Source: an uncultured delta proteobacterium (GTDB lineage: Bacteria; Desulfobacterota; Binatia; Binatales; Binataceae). From it: 64,000 nt of DNA. A program made the translations under genes and the position numbers. Each line of letters begins with the position of its first letter. Positions within the stretch are counted from its first letter, which is position 1. Where the stretch lies: contig CAWKCZ010000007.1 in the NCBI GenBank assembly GCA_963848285.1, forward strand, positions 361,597 to 425,596, given 5' to 3'. The notes under the pieces are model-generated. The model was not told where the DNA came from. It saw nothing but the letters and a program-made list of their open reading frames with translations, and did not search any database. Positions 7,795 to 62,301 of this stretch are shown here, in pieces.

Positions 7795-7830
7795 GTCCCC
7801 CTTCCCTCAAGGGAAGGGGTTAGGGGTTAG
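7795..7830. repeat. REP-like palindrome CCCCCTTCCCTCAAGGGAAGGGGTTAGGGGTTAGG
   Basis: Same family as the units at 2196 and 34339. Confidence 0.65.
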
Positions 7831-7852
7831 GTCAGCCGATCCGATCCTCCAC

Positions 7853-9324: not shown

Positions 9325-10187
9325 TCAACCCCTTCGGACTTGCTCCTCGTACACCCGCAGCACCGATTCGGTCTCGGCATCGGCCGGATAGAAAACCTCG
9401 ACGTGAAGGTCCTGCAGCGTTACATCATTCGGGGTCGCGACGGTGGTGACGGTGCTGAACATCCGCGCAATTTTCCCATCCAGCTTCAGCTCCATCGGAA
9501 GAATCAGATCATGCGGCGCTTCGAGGTCGGGTTCACGCCATCGCGTCGGAATGCCGGGGTAGGCGAGGATCTCCGTAATGAGGTCCTCGCAAGTCGTCGT
9601 CGCGCGCCCATGCCAGCCGGCGATAGGCCTCGTTCAGGAGCGACTTCGCGATCGCCTCCCAGTTCAGGATGACTTTGCGCGAACCCGTTGGGATCGAACA
9701 GCAGGCGCAGCACGTTGATACGCGGCGCTTTCGAATATCGTCAGCGGCGTCAGGCCCTCAGGCTCCTTGCCGAGGGTCTGGTGAGAAACCGGATGAAGGC
9801 CTCATTCGCCATCACGATGTTCCAATGACGATCGTGTGCGAGCGCGCTGCGCGGCTCATTCGACTTGAGCATCACCTCGACCGCCGCGCGCACCTGCGTC
9901 ATGCGCGGATCATCGAGGCTGGTTTCGCCATAGACCGGCGCATAGCCGGCGGCGAGCAGCAGGAAATTTCGCTCGCGCAGCGGGATGTCGAGCACGTTCG
10001 AGAGCATCAGCAGCATCTCGCGGCTGGGCTCGGCGCGGCCGGTTTCGAGGAAGCTGATGTGGCGCGCGGAAACTTCCGCGTCGAGCGCGAGGTCGAGCTG
10101 GCTCAGATGCCGCGCCTCGCGCCATCGACGCAGAAGCGGCCCGACGCCGCTGGGTTCCACCGCCGTTCCATTGCGATGAATGTCCAT
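9325..10187 (-). CDS. MmyB-like transcriptional regulator (XRE HTH plus C-terminal MmyB domain); at least 3 frameshifts
   Basis: N-terminal LRRWREARHLSQLDLALDAEVSARHISFLETGRAEPSREMLLMLSNVLDIPLRERNFLLLAAGYAPVY. C-terminal pieces ...LLFDPNGFAQSHPEL / ...DLEAPHDLILPMELKLDGKIARMFSTVTTVATPNDVTLQDLHVEVFYPADAETESVLRVYEEQV are in other frames. Confidence 0.6.
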
Positions 10188-10189
10188 GC

Positions 10190-10878
10190 CTATAGCCTTA
10201 GCAGCGAGCGGGACCTCGCGCGATTACCTCGCGAGGTAATGCTTCGCATCGCCTTGGCGCGCGCGCGCGCCTGCTGCTCCTGGTAGAGCGCCATTTCCTC
10301 GGCCATCGCCTTGGCCACATTGGGTCGCTGCGCCATGCGATCGAAGTAAGCTCGCCACCGCCGGCCATTTCGCCAGATCGAAGCCCACGAATCGCGCCCA
10401 ATTAAGCACCGTGACGAGGTATGCATCGGCGACGGTGAAACGATCGAGCAGAAATTCGCGGCCATCGAGATGGCGGTTGAGGTGCGCGAGGCGGCGCTCC
10501 GCCTTCTCGCGCGCATATGTTTGGCGCCCTCGGTGGCGGTCGGATCGAGCAGCGGGATGAACACCACCTTGTGCAGTTCCGAGGTCATGAAGTTCAGCCA
10601 TTGCTGCAGGCGATAGCGCTCGATGCCGCTTTGCGGAGCGAGGCCTGACTGCGGGCTTTTGATCGGCGACATATTGCAGCACCACCGGATTTTCGGTGAG
10701 CAGCTCGCCCGCATCGGTGCGCAGCACCGGCACCTGACCCATCGCGTTGACCGCAAGAAAATCCGATCCGTCGGCGAGCTTCTTCGCTTGCGTGTCGACA
10801 TCGATGAAGTTGGCCTGTGATGCCGCCCTCGTAAAGTGCGATCCGCGTGGCCATCGAGCATGCGAGAGGAGAGAAATA
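10190..10878 (-). CDS. Glutathione S-transferase; frameshifted
   Basis: MDLYFSPLACSMATRIALYE / ...MGQVPVLRTDAGELLTENPVVLQYVADQKPA...FLLDRFTVADAYLVTVLNWARFVGFDLAKWPA / ...YFDRMAQRPNVAKAMAEEMALYQEQ. Confidence 0.65.
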
Positions 10879-11502: not shown

Positions 11503-11730
11503 GTTCTTGTCATCCTGATGCAAGCGGAGCGCAGCAGAAGGATCTCGAAACGCGACAATGCGCCTCGTCGTTCGAATGCGCCGACGACTTCCATCCTGCC
11601 CTGCCGATAGGCCGTGGCGGCAGCCGATCAGGAGGATCGCGATGTTCCAAGGATCGAGATCCTTCCGCTACGCTACGCTTGCGTCAGGATGACATGCAAC
11701 GGAACAGGCTCACCTCAGGATGACGCTGGG
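11503..11730. mobile_element. MITE-like element: inverted copies of TGTCATCCTGA(t/c)GCAAGCG...GAAGGATCTCGA (11503-11555 direct; 11650-11730 inverted, with an extra half copy) flanking a roughly 95-bp core
   Basis: Read directly from the sequence. Related element at 34428-34640. Small ORFs here give the recurring peptides EILPLRYACVRMT and EILLLRSACIRMT. Confidence 0.55.
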
Positions 11731-32300: not shown

Positions 32301-32619
32301 CATTCCTCAACCATGATGCATCATCACAGCGGCGTTCGTGCTGTTTGTCGCGGCGCGGAAAATTTGATCTTTTCGGGAAAGCGGATCCAGGGTTGCAATT
32401 GCGCGGCCGATCGCTAAGTTGAAATCGTACAATCTCGCGCGCGGCGATCGGCGCGATGAAAAATAGCTTGGGCTCGCGCCTGGATCCGAAAGTGGGGACC
32501 GGGACCCTGAGACTTGAGCGCTCTCCCATCGCCATTCCGCTCGCTGATTTGGCAAGAGTGTGCTCCTTTGTTCCGGGGTCGCCAGTGTCCGCATCGGCGG
32601 TCCCGAATTTTTTGAGGGA

Positions 32620-33471
32620 GCACGAACGTGGATCAGCCAAGAAAGTTCGCATTACCGATCTCGCCGCGATGAAATCGGCGCGCTCGCCAATCACGATGCT
32701 GACCGCGTACGACGCGCCGTTCGCGCGCATCTTCGACGAGGCCGGCGTCGACGCGCTGCTGGTCGGCGACAGCGTCGCGATGGTGGTGCAGGGCGCCGAC
32801 AGCACACTGCCAGTCACCGTCGAGGAAATCCTCTACCACACGCGCATCGTCGCGCGGGCGCGCAAGCGCGCTTTGCTCATCGCGGACATGCCGTTTCTCT
32901 CCTACCAGGTGAGCGCCGAGGATGCGCTGCGCAACGCCGGCCGCCTCATCAAGGAGGGCGGCGCCGAGGCGGTGAAGCTCGAAGGCGGCGTCGCGGTGGC
33001 CGAGACCGTCGCGCGCCTCAGCGCGAAGTCGACATTCCGGTGATGGGGCACATCGGGCTCACGCCGCAATCGATCCATCGGATGGGCGGGCATCGGGTGC
33101 AGGGCAATCGCGAGGGCAGCGCGCCCGGATGCCGTCAGCGCCTCATCGAGGATGCGAAGGCGCTGGAGGATGCGGGTGCGTTCGCGATCGTGCTGGAAGG
33201 AATTCCGGCGCCGCTCGCGCGCGAGATCACCGCGATGCTCGCGGTGCCGACCATCGGCATCGGCGCGGGCTCGCGATTGCGACGGGCAGGTGCTGGTGAT
33301 GCACGACATGCTCGGGCTCTCGGCGGGACTTCGTGCCGCGCTTCGCCAAACCCTACGCCAGCTTGTGGAATGACGCCTCGGCGGCGACCGCTCGCCTACC
33401 TGCGCGAAGTCAAAGAGCACGCCTTTCCGGGCCCGGAACATTCATACGGACTCAAGGGGAAACGCTCATGA
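32620..33471 (+). CDS. panB: 3-methyl-2-oxobutanoate hydroxymethyltransferase; about 4 frameshifts
   Basis: ...[48 protein letters not shown]...[12 protein letters not shown] / ...[25 protein letters not shown] / ...[31 protein letters not shown] / ...[10 protein letters not shown] / ...[17 protein letters not shown]. Confidence 0.8.
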
Positions 33472-34330
33472 GCAACATCAAGGTGATTCGGAATCCGCGC
33501 GAGATGATGGATTTCGCCGACGCAGCTCGCGCGCGCGGCGAGCGCATCGGCTTCGTGCCCACCATGGGTTACCTGCACGAGGGCCATCTGAGCCTGATGC
33601 GCGAGGCGCACCGGCGTGACCGAGCACGGTGGTCGCGTCGATCTTCGTGAATCCCGACGCAGTTCGCGCCCAACGAGGACCTCTCGCAGCTATCCACGCG
33701 ACTTCGCGCGCGACTGCGCGATGATGGAAACCGTGCCGGTCGAGGTGGTCTTCGCGCCCGAAGCTCCCGACATGTATCTGCCGGGCGCGCAGACCTGGGT
33801 CGAGGTCACCGAGGTGACTCGCGGTCTATGTGGCAAGGGACGGCCGGGGCATTTTCGCGGCGTCACCACGGTGGTGGCGAAGCTGTTCAACATCGTGAAG
33901 CCGCACCTCGCGTTTTTCGGCGAGAAGGATTTTCAGCAACTGCGCGCGATTCAGCGGATGGTGGCGGATTTGAATTTCGACGTCGAGATCGTGCCGATGC
34001 CGATTGTGCGCGAGCGCCGACCACCTCGCGATGTCGTCGCGCAACGCGTATCTGACGCTGGAGCAGCATTGCGATGCGCTCGCGCTGAGTGGCGCGATCG
34101 CGGCGGTGCGCAAGAATTTCGCGTGCGCGGGCAGCCCGAGGAGCTGGTGCAGACTGGCGACGAAGAGTTCTCAGACCGGCCCGGCATCGCGATCGAGTAC
34201 GTCGAAGTGGTCGATGCGGAGACGCTGTAGCCCGCGACCTCGTTGGAGGTGCCGGTGGTGATGGCGATCGCGGCGCGGGTCGGCAAAACGCGCCTCATCG
34301 ACAACGTGGTGCTGACGCGGGAAACCTAAC
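33468..34330 (+). CDS. panC: Pantoate--beta-alanine ligase; about 4 frameshifts
   Basis: [47 protein letters not shown] / ...[18 protein letters not shown]... / ...[65 protein letters not shown] / ...[12 protein letters not shown] / ...[17 protein letters not shown]. Confidence 0.8.
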
Positions 34331-34370
34331 CCCCAGCCCCTTCCCCTTTAGGGAAGGGGAGAAGAGAAAA
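34321..34370. repeat. REP-like palindrome ACCTAACCCCCAGCCCCTTCCCCTTTAGGGAAGGGGAG
   Basis: Same family as the units at 2196, 7147 and 7797. Confidence 0.65.
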
Positions 34371-34427
34371 GGTAATGGTGGCCGGCGTTCAGCGGACGTC
34401 CCGCACTAAGCTTGAACCTGTCCACCG

Positions 34428-34640
34428 CATGTCATCCTGACGTGAGCGAAGTTCGGTGTTTGTCATCCTGACGTGAGCGGAAGCGCGCTGCGGAAGGATC
34501 TCGAAACGTGGAGAGCCGCGATCGTGGACCTCGGCGCGGACGTTCGAGCGTGGTCGCATTCGATTCGGAGTGCGATGGCATTCCACGAGTTGAAGTTCTT
34601 CAGCTGCGCCGCGCAGCGGCTCACTTCAGAATGACAACGA
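34428..34640. mobile_element. MITE-like element: two tandem GTCATCCTGACGTGAGCG units plus GGAAGGATCTCGAAAC (34428-34505), and an inverted divergent copy (34573-34640)
   Basis: Read directly from the sequence; same family as 11503-11730. Small ORFs here give EILPQRASAHVRMT and EVLQLRRAAAHFRMT. Confidence 0.55.
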
Positions 34641-34648
34641 GGGCGTGG

Positions 34649-36019: not shown

Positions 36020-36195
36020 AAAAAAAGGAGCGAAGCGATCAAGGATTCTAACGGGATGGTAGAACCACCCTCTACAGTTCGGCAGGTCGCACGAAATTTC
36101 GAGCCTTGGTAGCCGGCCGCCAGCGTGACCAGCCGTAGGGGTCGGTTCTACCGACCCGATGGAATCCTGGATCGCGCAGCGGTCATCGTGATTGA
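36020..36195. repeat. Roughly 170-bp imperfect palindromic element, copy 1 (AAAAAAAGGAGCGAAGCGATCAAGGATTCTAACGGGATGGTAGAACCACCCTCTACAGTTCGG ... CCGTAGGGGTCGGTTCTACCGACCCGATGGAATCCTGGATCGCGCAGCGGTCATCGTG)
   Basis: The two arms are inverted repeats (AGGATTC/GAATCCT; GGTAGAACC/GGTTCTACC; CCCTCTACAG/CCGTAGGGG). Copies also at 36602-36750 and 62003-62246. Confidence 0.6.
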
Positions 36196-36236
36196 CTGAG
36201 CGTCGCCGATGTTGATCGCAATCGGATAGCGAACCA

Positions 36237-36626
36237 ATGACCCATCGTGAGAAAGTTGATCTACTGACGTCGGAACTCACGGCGAAGGGCGTTAAACAAG
36301 GACTCATTGCGCCGCCCATCTACCGATGGCTGTGGGCGCTCGGATTCGAAACACCACCGCCACTTTTCGGACAATCAGTTGAAGTCGTCTGTCTGATGGG
36401 CGTGCTTGCCGCGGTTGCAATGGGCTCGATCTATTGGCTCACCGGCCTGCCGGACTTTTTCTGGCGAGCGACGCTATTTGGCGGATCAATCGCGGTAACA
36501 ATGGGGTCATTTTTTTATGTCTACTTTCGCTGGAAAGCGAAGCGGCTCGGCCTTCCGGCCTGGGAAGAATATGGGCGCGCCGCAGATGCTCCCGGCTCCA
36601 TAAAAAAGGAGCGAAGCGATCCATGA
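36237..36626 (+). CDS. Small hypothetical membrane protein (3-4 TM); intact; its 3' end is encoded by repeat copy 2
   Basis: MTHREKVDLLTSELTAKGVKQGLIAPPIYRWLWALGFETPPPLFGQSVEVVCLMGVLAAVAMGSIYWLTGLPDFFWRATLFGGSIAVTMGSFFYVYFRW... Confidence 0.4.
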   Translation: MTHREKVDLLTSELTAKGVKQGLIAPPIYRWLWALGFETPPPLFGQSVEVVCLMGVLAAVAMGSIYWLTGLPDFFWRATLFGGSIAVTMGSFFYVYFRWKAKRLGLPAWEEYGRAADAPGSIKKERSDP

Positions 36627-36750
36627 TTCTAACGGGGTGGTAGAACCACCCCCTACAGTTCGAGGGGCGATAGCGAATTTTCGAGATTGGGGCGCTTTGT
36701 ACCTGACCCGTCGGAATCCTCGATCGCGCAGCGTCACTTGGATCGCCGTT
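36602..36750. repeat. Roughly 170-bp palindromic element, copy 2 (about 75% identical to copy 1)
   Basis: AAAAAAGGAGCGAAGCGATCCATGATTCTAACGGGGTGGTAGAACCACCCCCTACAGTTCGAGG ... GACCCGTCGGAATCCTCGATCGCGCAGCGTCAC. Confidence 0.6.
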
Positions 36751-48768: not shown

Positions 48769-48837
48769 CGGGATTCCTTCTGAGGCACAGAACTAGTTGA
48801 GATTCGGTGTTGAAGCAAAACCAATCGTACAAAACAA

Positions 48838-48866
48838 AGGGCGGCTGCGCAAAAGTCGCAGCCGCC
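48838..48866 (-). terminator. Intrinsic terminator GGGCGGCTGCGCAAAAGTCGCAGCCGCCC followed by a T-run on the minus strand
   Basis: Perfect 11-bp stem; TTTGTTTTG follows on the minus strand. Confidence 0.6.
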
Positions 48867-48891
48867 CGGGTTTGCCGATTATACCAGAAGT

Positions 48892-50842
48892 TTAGATCTC
48901 GTAACTGAGGGTCGCCTCCAGCTCGCTGATGCGCTGGTCGCGGCTGAACAGGAACGGATCCGTGTTGCGTCCGCTGCGGCCCAGGTACCAGATCCCATTC
49001 AGCCCCAACAGGATGTTACGCGAATAGCGGAACACGTTGGTGCTGCCCAGGTTGCCGGTGTTGTCGTCGATGTCCCATGCAAACGCGTTGGTCGACGTCA
49101 ACTGTCCATTGACCAGCCAGTTGGTGCTCGCAAGGAAGAAGAAGTTGCTGAAGCGACGCACCTTGCCGTATGCATTCGCGATGTTCGGAATCGCATGCCC
49201 CGGCAGATCGGGGTACCAGGTCTCGACGAACTGGCCGACCAGGAAGGTGTGCTGCTTGGAAATCCATGGAATGTAGGTCGGACGGTCGCCGGCCAGGATG
49301 AAGCGGCCGAACTCGGTCCACCGTGCTGCCGACTCACCGAGCCGCACGTTACGCGTCACGACCGGAGACGCACTCGGCGTAGGACCACCAGTGGGAGGGC
49401 CTGAAACGTCGATACCGACCTTCGGGGCGTACAGCGTGTCGTAGCGGAACACCATGTCGGTCAGGTCTTTGTCGTAGTAGGTTCCCGTCAAACCGAAGAA
49501 GTGGTTGCGACGGAAATTCTCGCTGGTGTACGGACGAATCGTTCCGAACGGCACCGGGCCTCCCGGAGGCGGTGCACCGAAATCGAACTGCCCGGGCAGC
49601 AGGAATACGCCCGGAAAGGCCTTAATGGTTCCGCCACCGCTTCGGTTGATCGGAGTCGGGCACGACGAGCATAGACCCGCTTTCGAATAGCGCGCCTCGT
49701 AAAGGTAGATGAAGCTTGCCTGCAACCCATTTCCGATCGGCAGCAAACTCGAATAACGGAAACCAAACTCGCTCTTGTCCAGCGTATTACGCGGGGTGTT
49801 CGAGTAGCCGGGTCCGCCTGTCAGACCGGCATTCGGATCAAACTGCGTATAGACATTGGTGGGCGCCGCAGCAGTTCCGAGGTTGGTGATACTCGATGGG
49901 AACTGTCCCAGATCCGCGAAGGTCTGGTGCCGATAGGGCTGCCCAAGGCGGTTGTATTGAATGAGCGGTCCGACCGGCGCTCGCACCATCCACGGGTTGC
50001 GCGCGTCGTTTAGCTGAACGACCGCAGTGTCACCCTGATAGTCGCCCGGAATGACGAAAGCCTCGGCCTCGTTGTTCGCAGTCTTCAGGAAGTCCGGCAG
50101 GATGTAGTTGAACTTCAACATCCTGACGTTCTTGCGCAGATTTTCTGCGGTCTCGAAATGGGTCCAGTGAAAGGTCAGGTCGTTTGGGTTGGTAATTTCA
50201 GTTCCCGACAACGCATCAGCTTCCGACCAGATGACCTGCTGCTTGCCGACACGGGCGGAAAAGTTGTCGCTGAAATTTAGCTGCCCGTAGTACTCGCGCA
50301 GGTCGTTGCGGAAGTACTCCTCCTGGATCTCCTGCTGCGTATACACCTTCCAGTCGCGTCGCGGTCTGGGCGACGCCCTCGCGCTTGATGGTCCCCAATG
50401 CGTTGTACCAGGGACGATAGAATGCAAAGAAATCCGCATCCTTAAGAATCAGTGTGTCGAGGCGGCCGAGGAACTTGTAGTTCTTGACCATATGGTAATC
50501 GGGTCGGACGTCGGCCAGTTGCCGCATCTGCACCAGGTCCCAATGGTTGAAATCGAAGCTCCCGCCGGTTTCCGTCGGTGCGCGTCCGGGATTGGTCTGA
50601 ATTGATCCCACCCCTGCTACCGGCGGTGTGAAGGTCGCAGGACTTCCGGTCCCGGACTTGGCACTGCCCTCGCCCCATCGACCGGACTCCCGGGTTTCGA
50701 AGAATCCGAACACCGAAAAGTCGCCTTGCGTAATCGTTGCGTTCGCCGCGGAGGTCCACAGCGTCGCGACCCCGGCGCATGCGGCGATCAACAGATTTCG
50801 CCAGCGCGCACCGCGACCAACACCCAACTTGTTCTTCACCAT
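48892..50842 (-). CDS. Large secreted / outer-membrane beta-barrel protein (about 640 aa, DUF1302-like), copy 1; one frameshift near 50330-50440
   Basis: Signal peptide MVKNKLGVGRGARWRNLLIAACAGVATLWTSAANA; Gly/Asn/aromatic-rich amphipathic strands ...RYSRNILLGLNGIWYLGRSG...ATLSYEI*. Confidence 0.55.
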
Positions 50843-51211
50843 ATGCTCCCCAAAGCTGACTGCTTCTTCCGGAGGTCAGCTATTTGCCGAATCGGCCCAG
50901 CCTGCGTTTCCACCCGAGTTAACCAAAATTAAGGGCCTCAGTAACATACCTAATTGTTAAGTGTCAATGCTGTCATAAGATAAACTATTGGAAAGACGCT
51001 GAAATCGTTGTACTCGACCGCACCTCAAGGACCCTGAGTCAGAACACCTTTGGCATCTCACAGGCAAGAACGATGCTAAAATGCTCTATATAACACCGCA
51101 AATGATGAAGTTCGCTGCCAAGCAATGCCTAAACCTGCTTGGCAGTGCATATCCAGCCGCATCGCGCCCATGGCGAACGAACCTAAATTAGATCCGGACT
51201 TAATATAAGCT

Positions 51212-52174: not shown

Positions 52175-52199
52175 GCGGCGCTTTCGACATAAAAGAAAA

Positions 52200-52228
52200 G
52201 GGCGGCTGCGCAAAAGTCGCAGCCGCCC
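52200..52228 (-). terminator. Intrinsic terminator GGGCGGCTGCGCAAAAGTCGCAGCCGCCC (duplicate)
   Basis: Same hairpin; CTTTTCTTTT follows on the minus strand. Confidence 0.6.
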
Positions 52229-52252
52229 GGTTTTGCTGATTATACCGGAAGT

Positions 52253-54170
52253 TTAGATCTCGTAACTGAGGGTCGCCTCCAGCTCGCTGATGCGCTGGTC
52301 GCGGCTGAACAGGAACGGATCCGTGTTGCGTCCGCTGCGGCCCAGGTACCAGATCCCATTCAGCCCCAACAGGATGTTACGCGAATAGCGGAACACGTTG
52401 GTGCTGCCCAGGTTGCCGGTGTTGTCGTCGATGTCCCATGCAAACGCGTTGGTCGACGTCAACTGTCCATTGACCAGCCAGTTGGTGCTCGCAAGGAAGA
52501 AGAAGTTGCTGAAGCGACGCACCTTGCCGTATGCATTCGCGATGTTCGGAATCGCATGCCCCGGCAGATCGGGGTACCAGGTCTCGACGAACTGGCCGAC
52601 CAGGAAGGTGTGCTGCTTGGAAATCCATGGAATGTAGGTCGGACGGTCGCCGGCCAGGATGAAGCGGCCGAACTCGGTCCACCGTGCTGCCGACTCACCG
52701 AGCCGCACGTTACGCGTCACGACCGGAGACGCACTCGGCGTAGGACCGCCAGTGGGCGGACCTGAAACGTTGATACCGACCTTCGGGGCGTACAGCGTGT
52801 CGTAGCGGAACACCATGTCGGTCAGGTCTTTGTCGTAGTAGGTTCCCGTCAAACCGAAGAAGTGGTTGCGACGGAAATTCTCGCTGGTGTACGGACGAAT
52901 CGTTCCGAACGGCACCGGGCCTCCCGGAGGCGGTGCACCGAAATCGAACTGCCCGGGCAGCAGGAATACGCCCGGAAAGGCCTTAATGGTTCCGCCACCG
53001 CTTCGGTTGATCGGAGTCGGGCACGACGAGCATAGACCCGCTTTCGAATAGCGCGCCTCGTAAAGGTAGATGAAGCTTGCCTGCAACCCATTTCCGATCG
53101 GCAGCAAACTCGAATAACGGAAACCAAACTCACTCTTGTCCAGCGTGTTGCGCGGAGTGTTCGAATATCCCGCTCCACCGGTTAAACCACCACTGGGATC
53201 AAACTGCGTATAGACATTGGTGGGCGCCGCAGCAGTTCCGAGGTTGGTGATACTCGATGGGAACTGTCCCAGATCCGCGAAGGTCTGATGCCGATAGGGC
53301 TGCCCAAGGCGGTTGTATTGAATGAGCGGTCCGACCGGCGCTCGCACCATCCACGGGTTGCGAGCGTCGTTTAGCTGAACGACCGCAGTGTCACCCTGGT
53401 AATCGCCCGGAATGACGAAAGCCTCGGCCTCGTTGTTCGCGGTCTTCAGGAAGTCCGGCAGGATGTAGTTGAACTTCAACATCCTGACGTTCTTGCGCAG
53501 ATTTTCCGCGGTCTCGAAATGAGTCCAATGAAAGCTCAGATCGTTCGGGTTGGTAATTTCAGTTCCCGACAACGCATCAGCTTCCGACCAGATGACCTGC
53601 TGCTTGCCGACACGGGCGGAAAAGTTGTCGCTGAAATTTAGCTGCCCGTAGTACTCGCGCAGGTCGTTGCGGAAATACTCCTCCTGGATCTCCTGCTGCG
53701 TATACACCTTCCAGTCGCGTGCGGTCTGCGCGACGCCCTCGCGCTTGAGGGTCCCCAACGCGTTGTACCAGGGACGATAGAACGCAAAGAAATCCGCGTC
53801 CTTAAGAATCAGTGTGTCGAGGCGGCCGAGGAACTTGTAGTTCTTGACCATGTGGTAGTCGGGCCGGACGTCGGCCAGTTGCCGCATCTGCACCAGGTCC
53901 CAATGGTTGAAATCGAAGCTCCCGCCGGTTTCCGTCGGTGCGCGTCCGGGATTGGTCTGGATTGATCCCGACCCCCGGTACCGGCGGTGTGAAGGTCGCA
54001 GGACTTCCGGTCCCGGACTTGGCACTGCCCTCGCCCCATCGACCGGACTCCCGGGTTTCAAAGAATCCGAACACCGAAAAGTCGCCCTGTGTGATCGTTG
54101 CGTTCGCTGCGGAGGTCCACAGCGTCGCGACCCCGGCGCATGCGGCGATCAACAGATTTCGCCAGCGCAC
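52253..54170 (-). CDS. Large outer-membrane beta-barrel protein, copy 2; one frameshift near 53940-54060, at a different place from copy 1
   Basis: ORF 52253..54061 (602 aa, intact through the region broken in copy 1) plus the N-terminal signal-peptide segment 53802..54170. Confidence 0.55.
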
Positions 54171-54574
54171 ACCGCGACCAACATTCCAATTTGTTCTTCA
54201 CCATATGCTCCCCAAAGCTGACTGCTTCTTCCGGAGGTCAGCTATTTTGCCCCGACCCGAACAATACTGTTTGTCGCACCTATTCCATTACGGGCACGTT
54301 AACGCGGCCTAGGTAGCATCTTGCCGAAGAGGTTGTCAAGCAGGCGTCCCGAAACGAGACATCGCGCGATGCCCTTGTAAAATCGGGCAGTTAGGCGCAT
54401 GCGCGGCGCCAAATCAGGTCACCATGCGGGTTTCGAGCTTGAGAGAAGACGAATTCAAACACCACGCGCGGGCGGCTGGCAGCAAATTTTCTCGATCGTG
54501 CCGGACCACGGGTGCGCGCCCATGAGTCTGAGTAACTCTCAAATACGCGCGGGCTTATGGATGCCGAACAGGAT

Positions 54575-59371: not shown

Positions 59372-60621
59372 CTAATTCCTCCGCACGTTGCGGAAGGGGC
59401 CGGTGTCGAAGCGCGGCTCCTTCGGCAACTCCATCACCCGCTCCGCGATGATGTTGCGCTGAATCTCGTCGGTGCCGCCCGCGATCGATACCGCCGGCAC
59501 CGATACGAGGATCTCCGCGATGATGCCCTCGCGCGGGCTCTCCGGTCCGGTCAGCATCGCCTCGGTGCCGGTCATCATCGTATGCACTCGGGCGCAGGCC
59601 CGCGCGACGTGGCTGGCTGCCAGCTTTCCGAGCGAGCCTTCGGGACCTTGCGGACGGCCCTGCTGCTGGGCGGCGCGCGCGCGACGCGCGGTCCATTCGG
59701 CCGACTTCGCCATGATCATCAGCTTGGCGATTTCCTGCCGGATGTGCGGGATCCTCGTTCGCGCCGGTTTCCTTCGCGCGCTCGAGGATGAGGTCCACTC
59801 GCCGGCGCGCTGCGGATACCATCTGTAGGGCTCGTTGGCCTTTTCGTTTTCGGCGCGCTCCTCGGCGTGAATGTGTCCCTGGCGCGATGCCGCGCTTTGA
59901 TGGAGTCGCGAGGCCGTCGGCGCCGCGGCGCTCATGCGCGAGCGTCGTCATCGCGACCTTCCATCCGTCGCCGACCTTGCCGACGAGATTTTCCGCCGGC
60001 ACTTTCGCATCGGTGAAGAAGACCTGGTTGAACGATGCGTGGCCGTTCATCTGCTTGAGCGGCTGCACATCGACGCCGGGCTGCTTCACGTCGATCACAA
60101 AGTACGACATCCCCTCATGCTTGGGCGCGTCCCAATCGGTGCGCGCGAGCAGACAGGCCGTGGTCGGCATGATGCGCGCTGGTGGTCCAGACTTTCTGTC
60201 CGTTGACGATCCAGAAATCGCCGTTCAAATCCGCGCTGGTGGTCGCGCCCGCGAGGTCGGAGCCGCTGCCGGGCTCGCTGAAGAACTGGCACCAGGTGTC
60301 TTCGCCGGTCAGGATGCGGCGCAGGAACTTTTTCTTCTGCGCATCGCTGCCATGTTCGAGCAGCGTCGCGGCCGCCAGATGGCGCACGCCCGACCGCGCG
60401 GCGCTCACTGCGCCGACGTTGGCAAATTCCTCCTCGACCACGCGCGCGAGCGATGACGGCAACCCACGCCCGTACCATTCCTTGGGCCACTGCGGCGCGC
60501 CCCATCCCGGAATCGGCAAGCTTGCTGCGCCATTCCAGCAGCGACATGTCGGGATCCCAGTTGGCCGCGAGCCATGTCGCGAACTTCGGCGCGCACTTCG
60601 GCTTCGGCTGACGTTACTCAT
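59372..60621 (-). CDS. Acyl-CoA dehydrogenase (1 of a tandem pair); frameshifted
   Basis: ...QFFSEPGSGSDLAGATTSADLNGDFWIVNGQKVWTTSAHHAD / ...LLARTDWDAPKHEGMSYFVIDVKQPGVDVQPLKQMNGHASFNQVFFTDAKVPAENLVG / ...GGTDEIQRNIIAERVMELPKE... Confidence 0.7.
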
Positions 60622-60624
60622 CGC

Positions 60625-61803
60625 TCAAACTCCCCATCGCTGCATCAACAGCTCGCGATGATAACTCGGTTGGCCGAGGAAAACCTCGGAACTCTTGGCG
60701 CGCTTGAACCACAGATGCGTATCGTTGTCCCAGGTGAAGCCGATGCCGCCATGAAGCTGAATGGTTTCGATCGCGGTCTGCAGATAGGTCTCCGACGCCG
60801 ATGGCCTTGGCGAGGCTGGCCAGCGCCGGCCACTCCGGGTCATCGACCGCGGCTGCCTGCGCGGCGTAGTAGGCGGCGGACTTCGCGAGCTCCACATCGA
60901 GCAGCATATCGGCGAGCTTATGCTTGATGGCCTGGAAGGAGCCGATCGTGCGTCCGAACTGGACCCGCAGCTTCGAGTAATCACCGCCGAATCGAGCAGC
61001 GCTGCGCACCGCCCACCATCTCATTGGCGAGCGCGATGGCGGCCTGATCCATCGTGCGGACTGGATCGCGTTCCGCCCGTCATCGCAGATTGCCGAGCAG
61101 ATGCGCGTGGGCGCCACGAAATCGATGCGCGCGATCTTGCGCGTCGGATCCATCGACGGCGAGCGGGCTTCGCTCGACGCCCGCGGCGTTCGCCTCGAGG
61201 GTGAACAGACCCGAAGCCCTCGCGACCGCTCGCCGGGGCACGCGCGCGGCGACGACCAGCAAATCGGCGATGTGACCATCGACGACGTAGCTCTTGGCTC
61301 CGTCGAGGCGGAAGCCATGACCGTCAGTGGTGGCGACGGTCTCGATGCTGCGCCGGATCCCAATTGCCGTTCGGTTCGGTGATCGCGAGCGTCGCGAGTC
61401 GCGCGCCGCTGGCGATGTCCGGCAGCAGGCTCGCTTTCTGCGCCTCGGTGCCCGCGTTCAGGATCGCGTTCGCGGCGAGCACCGAGGTGGAAAAATACGG
61501 TGCGCACAAACCAGCGCGCGGCCGAACTCCTCCATCACGATGCCGAGCTCGACCATGCCGAATCCCGCGCCGCCGTATTGCTCCGGAATATGGATGCCGG
61601 GGAGCGCGAGTTCCTCGCTCATCTGGCGCCACACTGCGGGATCGTAGCCCTCGGCGGTGGCCATCAGGCGTCGGACCTCGGTGGTGGGCGATTTGTCAGT
61701 GAGAAATCGCCGAATGCGCCGAGCGGAACTGCTCCTGCTCATCGGTAAATGCGAACTGGATGCGATGGGCGGGATCGGTTTTCGATTTTTGGGTTGCGCT
61801 CAT
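60625..61803 (-). CDS. Acyl-CoA dehydrogenase (2 of the pair); frameshifted
   Basis: MSATQKSK.../...EELALPGIHIPEQYGGAGFGMVELGIVMEEFGRAL / ...YFSTSVLAANAILNAGTEAQKASLLPDIASGARLATLAITEP / ...QFGRTIGSFQAIKHKLADMLLDVELAKSAAYYAA / ...IQLHGGIGFTWDNDTHLWFKRAKSSEVFLG... Confidence 0.7.
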
Positions 61804-62002
61804 CGGGATAAAACTGCCTTTGTAGCGGGCCTTCGATGCCCGCGTTAGCGATCATCATCTGAATAGCAACGATCGATTGACGACGTAAACCGCAGCAGGT
61901 TTGACTCGTCGATGGCGTCGCCGGAACGGTTCTTGGAAACCGCGCGCATTGATCCATGGCCATCGCCGGTGGAACGCCTCAATTTCGCGTGTGGAATTGA
62001 GG

Positions 62003-62246
62003 ACCAAAGCCATCGAGGATTCAACGGGACGTTCGCGAACGCCCCCTACGGTTCGATGCGAGGTGCCGATATCCAAGGTTTGAGACAGTCGACGGCGTCG
62101 CAGGAAGAGCCCCCGTTTTTTGGTTCGGTACACCGTTTCGATTCGTAGGGGCCGTTCGCGAACGGACCGATGAATCCTGATCCGCGCAGCGTTCATCTAT
62201 TCCTGGAAAGCGCAGACCAACCCGCCGCCGTAGTGGTTGGCACGCG
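62003..62246. repeat. Roughly 170-bp palindromic element, copy 3, bounded by near-identical 24-bp direct repeats TCAATTTCGC(G/C)T(G/T)TGGAATTGAGG at 61979-62002 and 62247-62270
   Basis: ATCGAGGATTCAACGGGACGTTCGCGAACGCCCCCTACGGTTCGAT ... CGATTCGTAGGGGCCGTTCGCGAACGGACCGATGAATCCTGATCCGCGCAGCGTTCATC; aligns with copies 1 and 2, with a swapped internal palindrome. Confidence 0.6.
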
Positions 62247-62301
62247 CGTCAATTTCGCCTTTGGAATTGAGGTGCTGATGTTCCAATGCCGCCGGGTGTG
62301 T

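Follow-up and report, generated by a model that had tools for sequence, protein, structure and literature searches.

REP doublets forming hairpins (REPINs) are pairs of inverted repetitive extragenic palindromes (REPs) that fold into hairpins in single-stranded DNA (ssDNA); compensatory changes are common in them and their tandem clusters include flanking sequence (PMC3116915). Tail-to-tail REP dimers with variable spacers, hybrid dimers and dimers lying within long palindromes have also been described (PMC3733652). REPs of the GTAG type have a stem of 5–13 bp, a loop of 2–20 nt and an unpaired GTAG at one foot of the hairpin; they are repeated, extragenic and found next to genes for a dedicated transposase. 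We have analysed three related palindromic elements in a 64-kb stretch of DNA (the window) from contig CAWKCZ010000007.1, located at positions 36021–36195 (copy 1), 36602–36733 (copy 2) and 61993–62208 (copy 3). An earlier note, made from the letters of the window, had described them as long hairpins with compensatory changes in the arms, which might be either a structured RNA or a miniature inverted-repeat transposable element (MITE). All the defining features of GTAG-type REPs tested here were found, the proximity to transposase genes being seen in related loci, and the structural features of REPINs were found as well. The three elements are very probably REP doublets, i.e. REPIN-like non-autonomous mobile elements, belonging to a system of REPs and a REP-associated tyrosine transposase (RAYT) in a Binatia-like soil bacterium.

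REP doublets and the preserved helix

The elements are built from half-units of approximately 45–70 nt with the layout cGAAcc, GTAG, an 8-bp GC-rich stem with a loop of 3–4 nt, GnTnGAATCCTsGATC and a tail. The GTAG is unpaired and the stem-loop is the REP. Two half-units face each other with the GTAG inward, separated by a variable spacer of 30–110 nt, and a frame of about 40 nt is conserved on each side of the element. The whole element is imperfectly palindromic because it consists of two inverted copies of one unit. In the 28 distinct half-units collected from the window and 13 related loci, the GTAG tag is nearly invariant: its T and A are the same in all of them and both G's are conserved in at least 90%, the exceptions being ATAG (L070L) and GTAC (L140R and L148b). 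At least three interchangeable REP stem types occur within the same frame, namely type A, GGGGTGG TTCTA CCRCCCC (copies 1 and 2, L070 and L092), type B, GGGSCGTTCGCGAACGSCCC (copy 3, L052, L055 and L095), and type C, GGGGCGTCCTTGGACGCCCC (L110). The inverted-doublet layout with the GTAG inside (tail-to-tail) was found in copies 1 and 3 and also in L052, L070a, L093, L095, L110, L140 and L179. Altogether, more than 40 REP units were recognized across the related loci by the REP scan and nhmmer.

The relationship of the three copies, as proposed in the earlier note, was confirmed. The repeat finder grouped them in one family, D5 (36021–36081, 36602–36662 and 61995–62055), with copy 1 being 93% identical to copy 2 and 62% identical to copy 3 over the 61-nt stretch. 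Their common right end, GAATCCTnGATCGCGCAGCG, occurs three times, against 0.13 occurrences expected by chance. A half-unit profile run with nhmmer over the whole window detected five strong half-units and one weak half-unit, all of them within the three copies, and no further half-unit outside them. All three sites of the window are thus doublets, a small sample. The six REP units (five intact and one decayed) are intergenic except for a 24-nt overlap with the 3' end of a gene encoding a DUF6404 protein, and the local DNA hairpins folded from the window units range from −4.4 to −9.2 kcal/mol.

Copy 1 (36021–36195, plus strand) is a complete doublet composed of a left tail, outer-L segment, inverted REP, 59-nt spacer, REP, outer-R segment and right tail; its two halves matched the half-unit profile with E = 2.4e-9 and 2.4e-7. 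The left REP (36053–36075, minus strand), assigned to type A by the REP scan and alignment, reads GTAG-A-GGGTGGTTCTACCATCC on the minus strand and has the least stable local DNA hairpin (−4.4 kcal/mol). The right REP (36135–36157, plus strand), also of type A, reads GTAG followed by GGGTCGG TTCTA CCGACCC and its local DNA hairpin reaches −9.2 kcal/mol (z = −3.6).

Copy 2 (36602–36733, plus strand) has a spacer of 29 nt. Its left REP (36634–36656, minus strand) is of type A, with GTAG followed by GGGGTGG TTCTA CCACCCC on the minus strand and a local hairpin of −9.0 kcal/mol. The right REP (36686–36709, plus strand; ATTGGGGCGCTTTGTACCTGACCC) is degenerate, with ATTG in the place of GTAG and a broken stem, as judged by eye against copy 1 and positions 868–935 of L070. 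It was not picked up by the REP scan, and the right half of copy 2 matched the profile only at E = 0.85, compared to E = 5.2e-9 for the left half.

Copy 3 (61993–62208, plus strand) is a complete doublet with type B stems on both arms and a 95-nt spacer; it coincides with an inverted repeat (I1) whose 54-nt arms are 80% complementary, and it is 80% identical to L052 over 219 nt. The left REP (62026–62049, minus strand) consists of GTAG and GGGGCGTTCGCGAACGTCCC on the minus strand (nhmmer E = 1.7e-12), and the right REP (62145–62168, plus strand) of GTAG and GGGCCGTTCGCGAACGGACC (E = 4.8e-10). The bounds 62003–62246 originally given to this copy had to be replaced, as homology with the relatives places its ends at 61993 and 62208.

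The idea that every copy forms a long hairpin applied to two of them. Copy 1 (folded as 36020–36195) gave a long hairpin of −83 kcal/mol (z = −6.6) and copy 3 (folded as 62003–62200) one of −96.7 kcal/mol (z = −7.0), none of 200 shuffled sequences being equally stable in either case. Copy 2, in which the spacer is shorter and the right inner module has decayed, formed no significant hairpin (z = −1.4). Copies 1 and 3 thus show the hairpin fold of REPIN doublets and copy 2 does not. Similarly, the difference in inner modules between copy 1 (GGTAGAACC/GGTTCTACC) and copy 3 (CGTTCGCGAACG on both arms) was observed as described, but the right module of copy 2 is ATTGGGGCGCTTTGTACCTGACCC (36686–36709) and not GGTCGGTTCTACCGAC.

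The compensatory changes had been taken as a sign of a selected secondary structure formed by the pairing of the two arms. A structure is indeed preserved, but it is the REP hairpin within each arm and not the arm-to-arm helix. In the 28 half-units, 98.2% of the cells of the local 8-bp stem are paired. Four of its eight pairs show changes on both sides (24 cells), and the observed covariation score was reached by none of 500 shuffles, while control stems slid along the alignment paired in 42–57% of cells. The hybrid doublets L093, L140 and L179 combine a type A REP on the left with a type B REP on the right. Their arms pair with each other at only 11–13 of 20–21 module positions, compared to 16–20 of 19–21 in same-type doublets, whereas the local hairpins are intact (8/8) in both arms of all three. 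The long arm-to-arm helix is therefore dispensable, since the hybrids break it and yet keep both local hairpins. The predicted fold of L093 is a four-way junction in which the outer stem is kept and meets a stem in the spacer and the hairpins of both REPs. Doublets with one stem type on both sides also show left–right differences (G14:C29 versus C14:G29), which are compensated within the REP and mismatched arm-to-arm. A paired change also distinguishes copy 1 from the L070 copy, in which GGTAGAACC/GGTTCTACC is replaced by GGTACAACC/GGTTGTACC. The apparent compensatory changes of the arms are swaps between the REP stem types A, B and C. The hybrids thus serve as a natural test of which helix is under selection, and the outcome favours the recognition of ssDNA by a transposase over a long RNA or a cruciform.

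Relatives and the transposase link

The exact right-end pattern was scanned over the representative genomes of 185,579 species, which resulted in 67 loci, 65 of them chance matches. Five loci from Bradyrhizobium that were promising by name were rejected, as they share only a stretch of about 20 nt with the pattern. The true relatives are two loci of a single metagenome-assembled genome (MAG), 'uncultured delta proteobacterium MFD05512.bin.1.184', which carries a full element in L052 and a short form in L055. Ten more loci with true relatives were found by the same pattern in metagenome contigs (L092, L093, L095, L110, L140, L148, L156, L177, L179 and L183). As for the host of the window, the homologs of the neighbouring nitronate monooxygenase (NMO) at about 70–73% identity are named Candidatus Binataceae, so that the source is probably a Binatia-like bacterium. 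An alphaproteobacterial origin, considered at first, was abandoned in view of these names.

The relatives also include shortened and multiplied forms. In L055 and at 868–935 of L070 the outer frame and a single hairpin are kept, and such short forms would fit a deletion between the two REPs. L055 (short form) and L093 (full hybrid form) have homologous upstream flanks and, read by eye, look like orthologous sites. Tandem arrays with a period of 189 bp are present in L095, L156 and L177, and in L095 the array adjoins a RAYT gene.

The protein encoded by this gene (ORF 1405–1905 of L095, identical in L156) has a sole NCBIfam match, NF047646 (REP-associated tyrosine transposase; E = 7.6e-20, 71.3 bits), as well as the Pfam match Y1_Tnp (E = 0.0019). 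Its database homologs bear the source name 'REP element-mobilizing transposase RayT', and ten homologs matched NF047646 alone at the E-value limits used (54–78 bits, E = 1e-14 to 1e-22). To judge from these profile matches, the L095-type proteins appear to be a divergent, RAYT-like branch. The best match in the PDB is E. coli TnpA-REP (4ER8), and this weak alignment places the HLH of MPNHLHGIV on H59-M60-H61 and the Y and N of SYILDNP on Y115 and N119. In TnpA-REP, H59-M60-H61 forms the HUH motif, Y115 is the catalytic tyrosine and N119 binds the metal (PMC3479197).

The association of the RAYT genes with the elements is physical. In L095, the ORF is preceded by a half element (850–925) and a REP hairpin (1345–1365) and is directly followed by a full element (1886–2076) and three more tandem 189-bp units. 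L148 carries a RAYT gene whose product is 55% identical, with a right-half element about 50 nt upstream, and the RAYT genes of the MFD05512 MAG (L184/L185) and of L186 are embedded in clusters of the same REP units. Moreover, when the left tail (GAGGACCAAAGCCATC) of the window elements is aligned with these RAYT genes, it matches their last codons; the tail and the 3' end of the gene are homologous. A related RAYT gene adjoins polA in at least five assemblies, which fits the single-copy, vertically inherited habit described for RAYTs (PMC5581495).

A RAYT gene of this location, P0141 (L190–L194; next to polA in at least five assemblies), has an inverted REP (GGGCGGTTCGCGAACCGCCCCTAC) within its coding sequence (L191 3266–3294). 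The REPs flanking P0141 carry another 3' frame, GCAACGATGGCGCA, which also occurs in a solitary REP in L068 (9885–9912) and in units of L186.

A structured non-coding RNA, acting either in cis as a transcript-end or stabilizing hairpin or as a small RNA, with the long hairpin or the four-way junction being selected at the RNA level, was the first of the two identities considered in the earlier note. The predicted RNA folds of copies 1 and 3 are very stable and the local stems covary. Copy 2 is located immediately downstream of a convergent gene pair, copy 3 follows the gene of a K+ channel, and many REPs are regarded as transcribed sequences that function as hairpins in RNA (PMC3733652). However, there was no match in Rfam 15: none reached the gathering score in the whole window, and around copies 1 and 2 only chance-level matches were found at E ≤ 10. 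The orientation of the elements is inconsistent, copy 2 running with its gene, copy 3 against both of its neighbours and copy 1 lying between divergent genes. No terminator-like T-runs were found, and consensus scans detected no promoters or terminators in or around the elements. The dispensability of the long helix in the hybrids speaks against this explanation too, and both the invariant unpaired GTAG with a short hairpin and the position beside RAYT genes are what characterizes a DNA substrate, as recognized in ssDNA by Y1/HUH enzymes. We therefore regard RNA as an improbable primary identity of these elements.

The second proposed identity, a MITE, came close in that REPINs are described as 'miniature mobile DNA' and the units flank RAYT genes; the classical kind, with terminal inverted repeats, does not apply. 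The direct repeat at copy 3 had been described as 24 bp long and interpreted as a possible target-site duplication. The repeat does exist and is 28 nt long, with a left copy at 61975–62002 and a right copy at 62245–62272 (both plus strand) that are identical at 25 of 28 positions. However, the conserved left tail of the element begins with the last 10 nt of the left copy (GGAATTGAGG), the right copy begins 37 nt past the end of the element, and no flanking direct repeat is present at copy 1 and L070a. The target-site duplication was rejected on these grounds. In L052, inspection by eye revealed no strong flanking repeat. The right repeat copy is probably the stub of a second, tandem unit that resulted from a partial tandem duplication, since arrays of unit plus flank occur in L095, L156 and L177 and are described for REPINs.

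A classical MITE would be an internally deleted derivative of an insertion sequence of the DDE type, with terminal inverted repeats and a target-site duplication. The ends of the elements are indeed conserved and inverted (GGATTCTAACGGG / CCCGATGGAATCC) around a variable centre, a 28-nt direct repeat brackets copy 3, and the syntenic site in L068 is empty. This origin is nevertheless improbable as well: the repeat takes in a part of the element and is displaced at its right side, copy 1 and L070a lack one, the centres of conservation are the subterminal GTAG hairpins and not the termini, and the sole transposase gene seen bounded by the units is that of a Y1/HUH RAYT, not of a DDE enzyme.

The DUF6404 block and other repeats of the window

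Copies 1 and 2 enclose a gene for a small membrane protein of 129 amino acids (36237–36626, plus strand), which has the right tail of copy 1 before it and the left tail of copy 2 after it and belongs to the DUF6404 family (Pfam E = 4.5e-22). Six database homologs of its product were found, all with PF19942. The two copies are thus direct repeats around a small gene, as had been suggested, although copy 2 supplies the last seven sense codons and the stop codon of the gene (36603–36626) and not its last nine codons. The same order of a sigma factor gene, element, DUF6404 gene, element and NMO gene is found in L070, a closer relative. In L068 and L069, where NMO is 82% identical, the spacer between the NMO gene and that of the extracytoplasmic function (ECF) sigma factor has 74 bp and is empty. 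The block of approximately 720 bp consisting of copy 1, the DUF6404 gene and copy 2 is therefore present in the window and in L070 and absent from the syntenic spacer of L068 and L069. The slot of the DUF6404 gene, between a right tail (with the GTAG-REP pointing in) and a left tail (REP-CTAC), is the slot occupied by the RAYT gene in the units of L148, L184 and L095.

The inverse core of attC sites has the consensus RYYYAAC. Although a single small ORF that looks promoterless is enclosed by two directly oriented imperfect palindromes, the syntenic site lacks the block and the outer-L motif TTCTAAC agrees with that consensus at six of seven positions, it is most improbable that copies 1 and 2 are attC-like sites of an integron-type gene cassette, as the right ends (GATGGAA, GTCGGAA and GATGAAT) do not show the conserved G|TTRRRY core, copy 3 and most of the relatives are solitary and away from ORF cassettes, the units flank RAYT genes and not integrase genes in the related loci, and a GTAG with a short local hairpin differs from the attC architecture.

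Considering the elements as REP doublets, the block of copy 1, DUF6404 gene and copy 2 might be a passenger cassette bracketed by REPs and moved by a RAYT acting in trans, an idea that we put forward as a rather unlikely one. If it were true, RAYTs would move ordinary REP-framed genes in trans, and REP/RAYT systems would be vehicles of gene shuffling, beyond their role as selfish or domesticated repeats.

Two observations on distant DUF6404 homologs are weak side pointers in this direction. One of them concerns the L072 homolog (39% identical), which is bracketed by a different, 22-nt inverted repeat, GGTAGCGTCTCAGTTTTGAAAA / TTTTTCAAACTGAGACACCACC, at 9930–9951 and 10371–10392, with a small hairpin of the CTACC-CTTG-GGTAG type adjoining each arm. 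No further copy of the arm sequence CTCAGTTTTGAAAAA was found among the related loci compared. The other concerns distant homologs with 27.5% identity (E ~ 2e-4) that are carried by 74 plasmids, most of which are conjugative and 71 of which come from Klebsiella, IncF plasmids among them. In the one plasmid inspected, CP052193.1 (L195 4001–4354), the homolog lies just downstream of finO, and many of the 74 plasmid records have no gene annotated under the DUF6404 match. No DUF6404 gene was found in viral contigs.

The L095 locus contains another small membrane-type gene nested among REP units, a glycine-rich, lipoprotein-like ORF at about 1007–1320, between the half element (850–925) and the REP that immediately precedes the RAYT gene.

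A further segment of the same neighbourhood, 32360–34647, matches a segment of L072 whose genes carry the Pfam domains Pantoate_transf and Pantoate_ligase. The syntenic locus in L068 lacks it, between the genes for the methyltransferase and the anti-sigma factor. At its right edge it carries two other repeat families of the window. On comparison of these sequences, it looks like a second repeat-bordered presence/absence difference in this region. The first of the two families, TGTCATCCTGAyGyrAGCGGAGCGCAGCAGAAGGATCTCGAAACG, is palindromic and unrelated to the REP doublets. It forms a doublet at 11508–11552 and 11654–11694, whose 41-nt arms have 90% complementarity and are separated by 105 nt, and another pair, arranged head-to-tail, near 34431 (34431–34505); this family may represent a further REPIN- or MITE-like repeat in the source genome. 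The second is a hairpin repeat, CCTAACCCC...CCCCTTCCC-TTAA-GGGAAGGGG, which occurs in at least three intergenic places (2128–2221, 7798–7832 and 34325–34364).

Elsewhere in the window, the segments 48831–50885 and 52192–54247 are repeated at a spacing of 3.36 kb with 96–98% identity, which points to a block of genes duplicated in tandem not long ago. Downstream of copy 3, an acyl-CoA dehydrogenase-like region on the minus strand (60614–61742) comprises several overlapping ORFs in different frames instead of a single long one and may represent a frameshifted gene or a sequencing error.

Proposed mechanism and comparison with known systems

Several points weigh against the assignment of the three elements to a mobile REP/RAYT system. 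No RAYT gene was found within the window by tblastn, and the number of copies is modest (three elements in 64 kb). Among the representative genomes, the exact right-end pattern led to true relatives in just one MAG. The L095 protein and its relatives score below the equivalog cut-off of NF047646 (80 bits), and the PDB match to 4ER8 is weak (E = 0.11). The window elements have their GTAG inside (tail-to-tail), whereas the REPINs of Pseudomonas fluorescens SBW25 are classed as head-to-head (PMC3733652). Finally, the sign of mobility is one case of presence and absence, and as the outgroup NMO loci (L187–L189) are not syntenic, it may reflect either an insertion or a deletion of the DUF6404 block.

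A mechanism that would account for the features of the elements can be outlined from what is described for the family (PMC3479197, PMC3116915, PMC3733652). RAYTs are Y1/HUH transposases related to IS200/IS605 TnpA. The RAYT is expected to bind the REP hairpin together with the GTAG in ssDNA, to cleave nearby and to copy or move the doublets. Selection for recognition by RAYT would preserve the local hairpins in spite of drift or exchange of their sequences, giving rise to apparent compensatory differences between the copies, and each stem type would be maintained by the enzyme recognizing it. Internal deletions between the two REPs might generate the short one-hairpin forms, and duplication of a unit with its flank might generate the tandem arrays. 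Secondary effects at the RNA level, such as hairpins at transcript ends, are possible.

These results place a REP/RAYT system, whose single conserved frame accommodates several interchangeable hairpins, in a Binatia-like lineage known mostly from metagenomes; a literature search on this point found no paper naming both Binatia and repetitive extragenic palindromes. Such repeats also have practical consequences, as they can interrupt assemblies, give rise to spurious ORFs and be used as lineage markers, and copy 2 already contributes the last codons of a real gene.

A comparison with described systems starts with elements that are similar only in their general shape. MITEs such as ERIC (enterobacterial repetitive intergenic consensus) and the Correia-type elements are, like the elements of the window, intergenic imperfect palindromes of about 130–200 bp whose long and short variants are distinguished by the internal blocks they contain. 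In contrast, they have no GTAG-REP sub-hairpins and no association with RAYT, and Correia elements are characterized by a TA duplication and a DDE-type ancestry. Elements of the IS200/IS605 group and palindrome-associated transposable elements (PATEs) are closer in that a Y1/HUH transposase acts on subterminal ssDNA hairpins, no target duplication is expected and miniature derivatives without a transposase exist. They differ in three respects: the model matched by the proteins linked to the present elements is that of RAYT and not of IS200 TnpA proper, the hairpins here are GTAG-tagged, and one unit, present in inverted copies, makes up both ends in place of distinct left and right ends.

The E. 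coli system of REPs, bacterial interspersed mosaic elements (BIMEs) and TnpA-REP ('REPtron'; Messing et al. 2012, PMC3479197) shares with ours the 5' GTAG tag beside a stem-loop, the transposase gene bracketed by REPs and the aligned positions of the HUH motif and the catalytic Tyr and Asn, although the similarity of the proteins is very low (E = 0.11). Unlike the E. coli REPs, the stems described here are near-perfect, without the conserved bulge needed by the E. coli enzyme, the hairpin is followed by a conserved 3' frame of 16 nt, and the 3' coding end of the RAYT gene runs into the left tail.

The REPINs of SBW25 (Bertels and Rainey 2011, PMC3116915) have several features in common with the window elements. 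Both consist of two inverted REPs and a spacer with a predicted ssDNA hairpin, compensatory changes are common, singlets or short forms occur as decay products, tandem clusters include flanking sequence, and elements lie close to RAYT genes. The spacer of the window elements is nevertheless variable and conservation is found in their outer flanks of about 40 nt per side, a single frame holds three stem types as well as hybrids, and the host is Binatia-like and not a gammaproteobacterium.

Finally, the superfamily of GTAG-tagged REPs (Di Nocera et al. 2013, PMC3733652) covers stems within the same size range of 5–13 bp next to an unpaired GTAG, as well as head-to-head and tail-to-tail dimers spaced 20–100 bp, with variable spacers in the latter. 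Hybrid dimers (S. maltophilia), dimers nested in long palindromes (A. variabilis GTAG-15) and clusters of REPs around RAYT genes complete the likeness. The Binatia-like hosts lie outside the phyla listed for GTAG repeats (PMC3733652), and the likeness holds at the level of the superfamily, with no particular published family assigned to this stem and frame. The window elements are a known kind of miniature mobile DNA, whose GTAG-inside orientation, outer frames, multiple stem types and hybrids have already been described piecemeal (PMC3733652).

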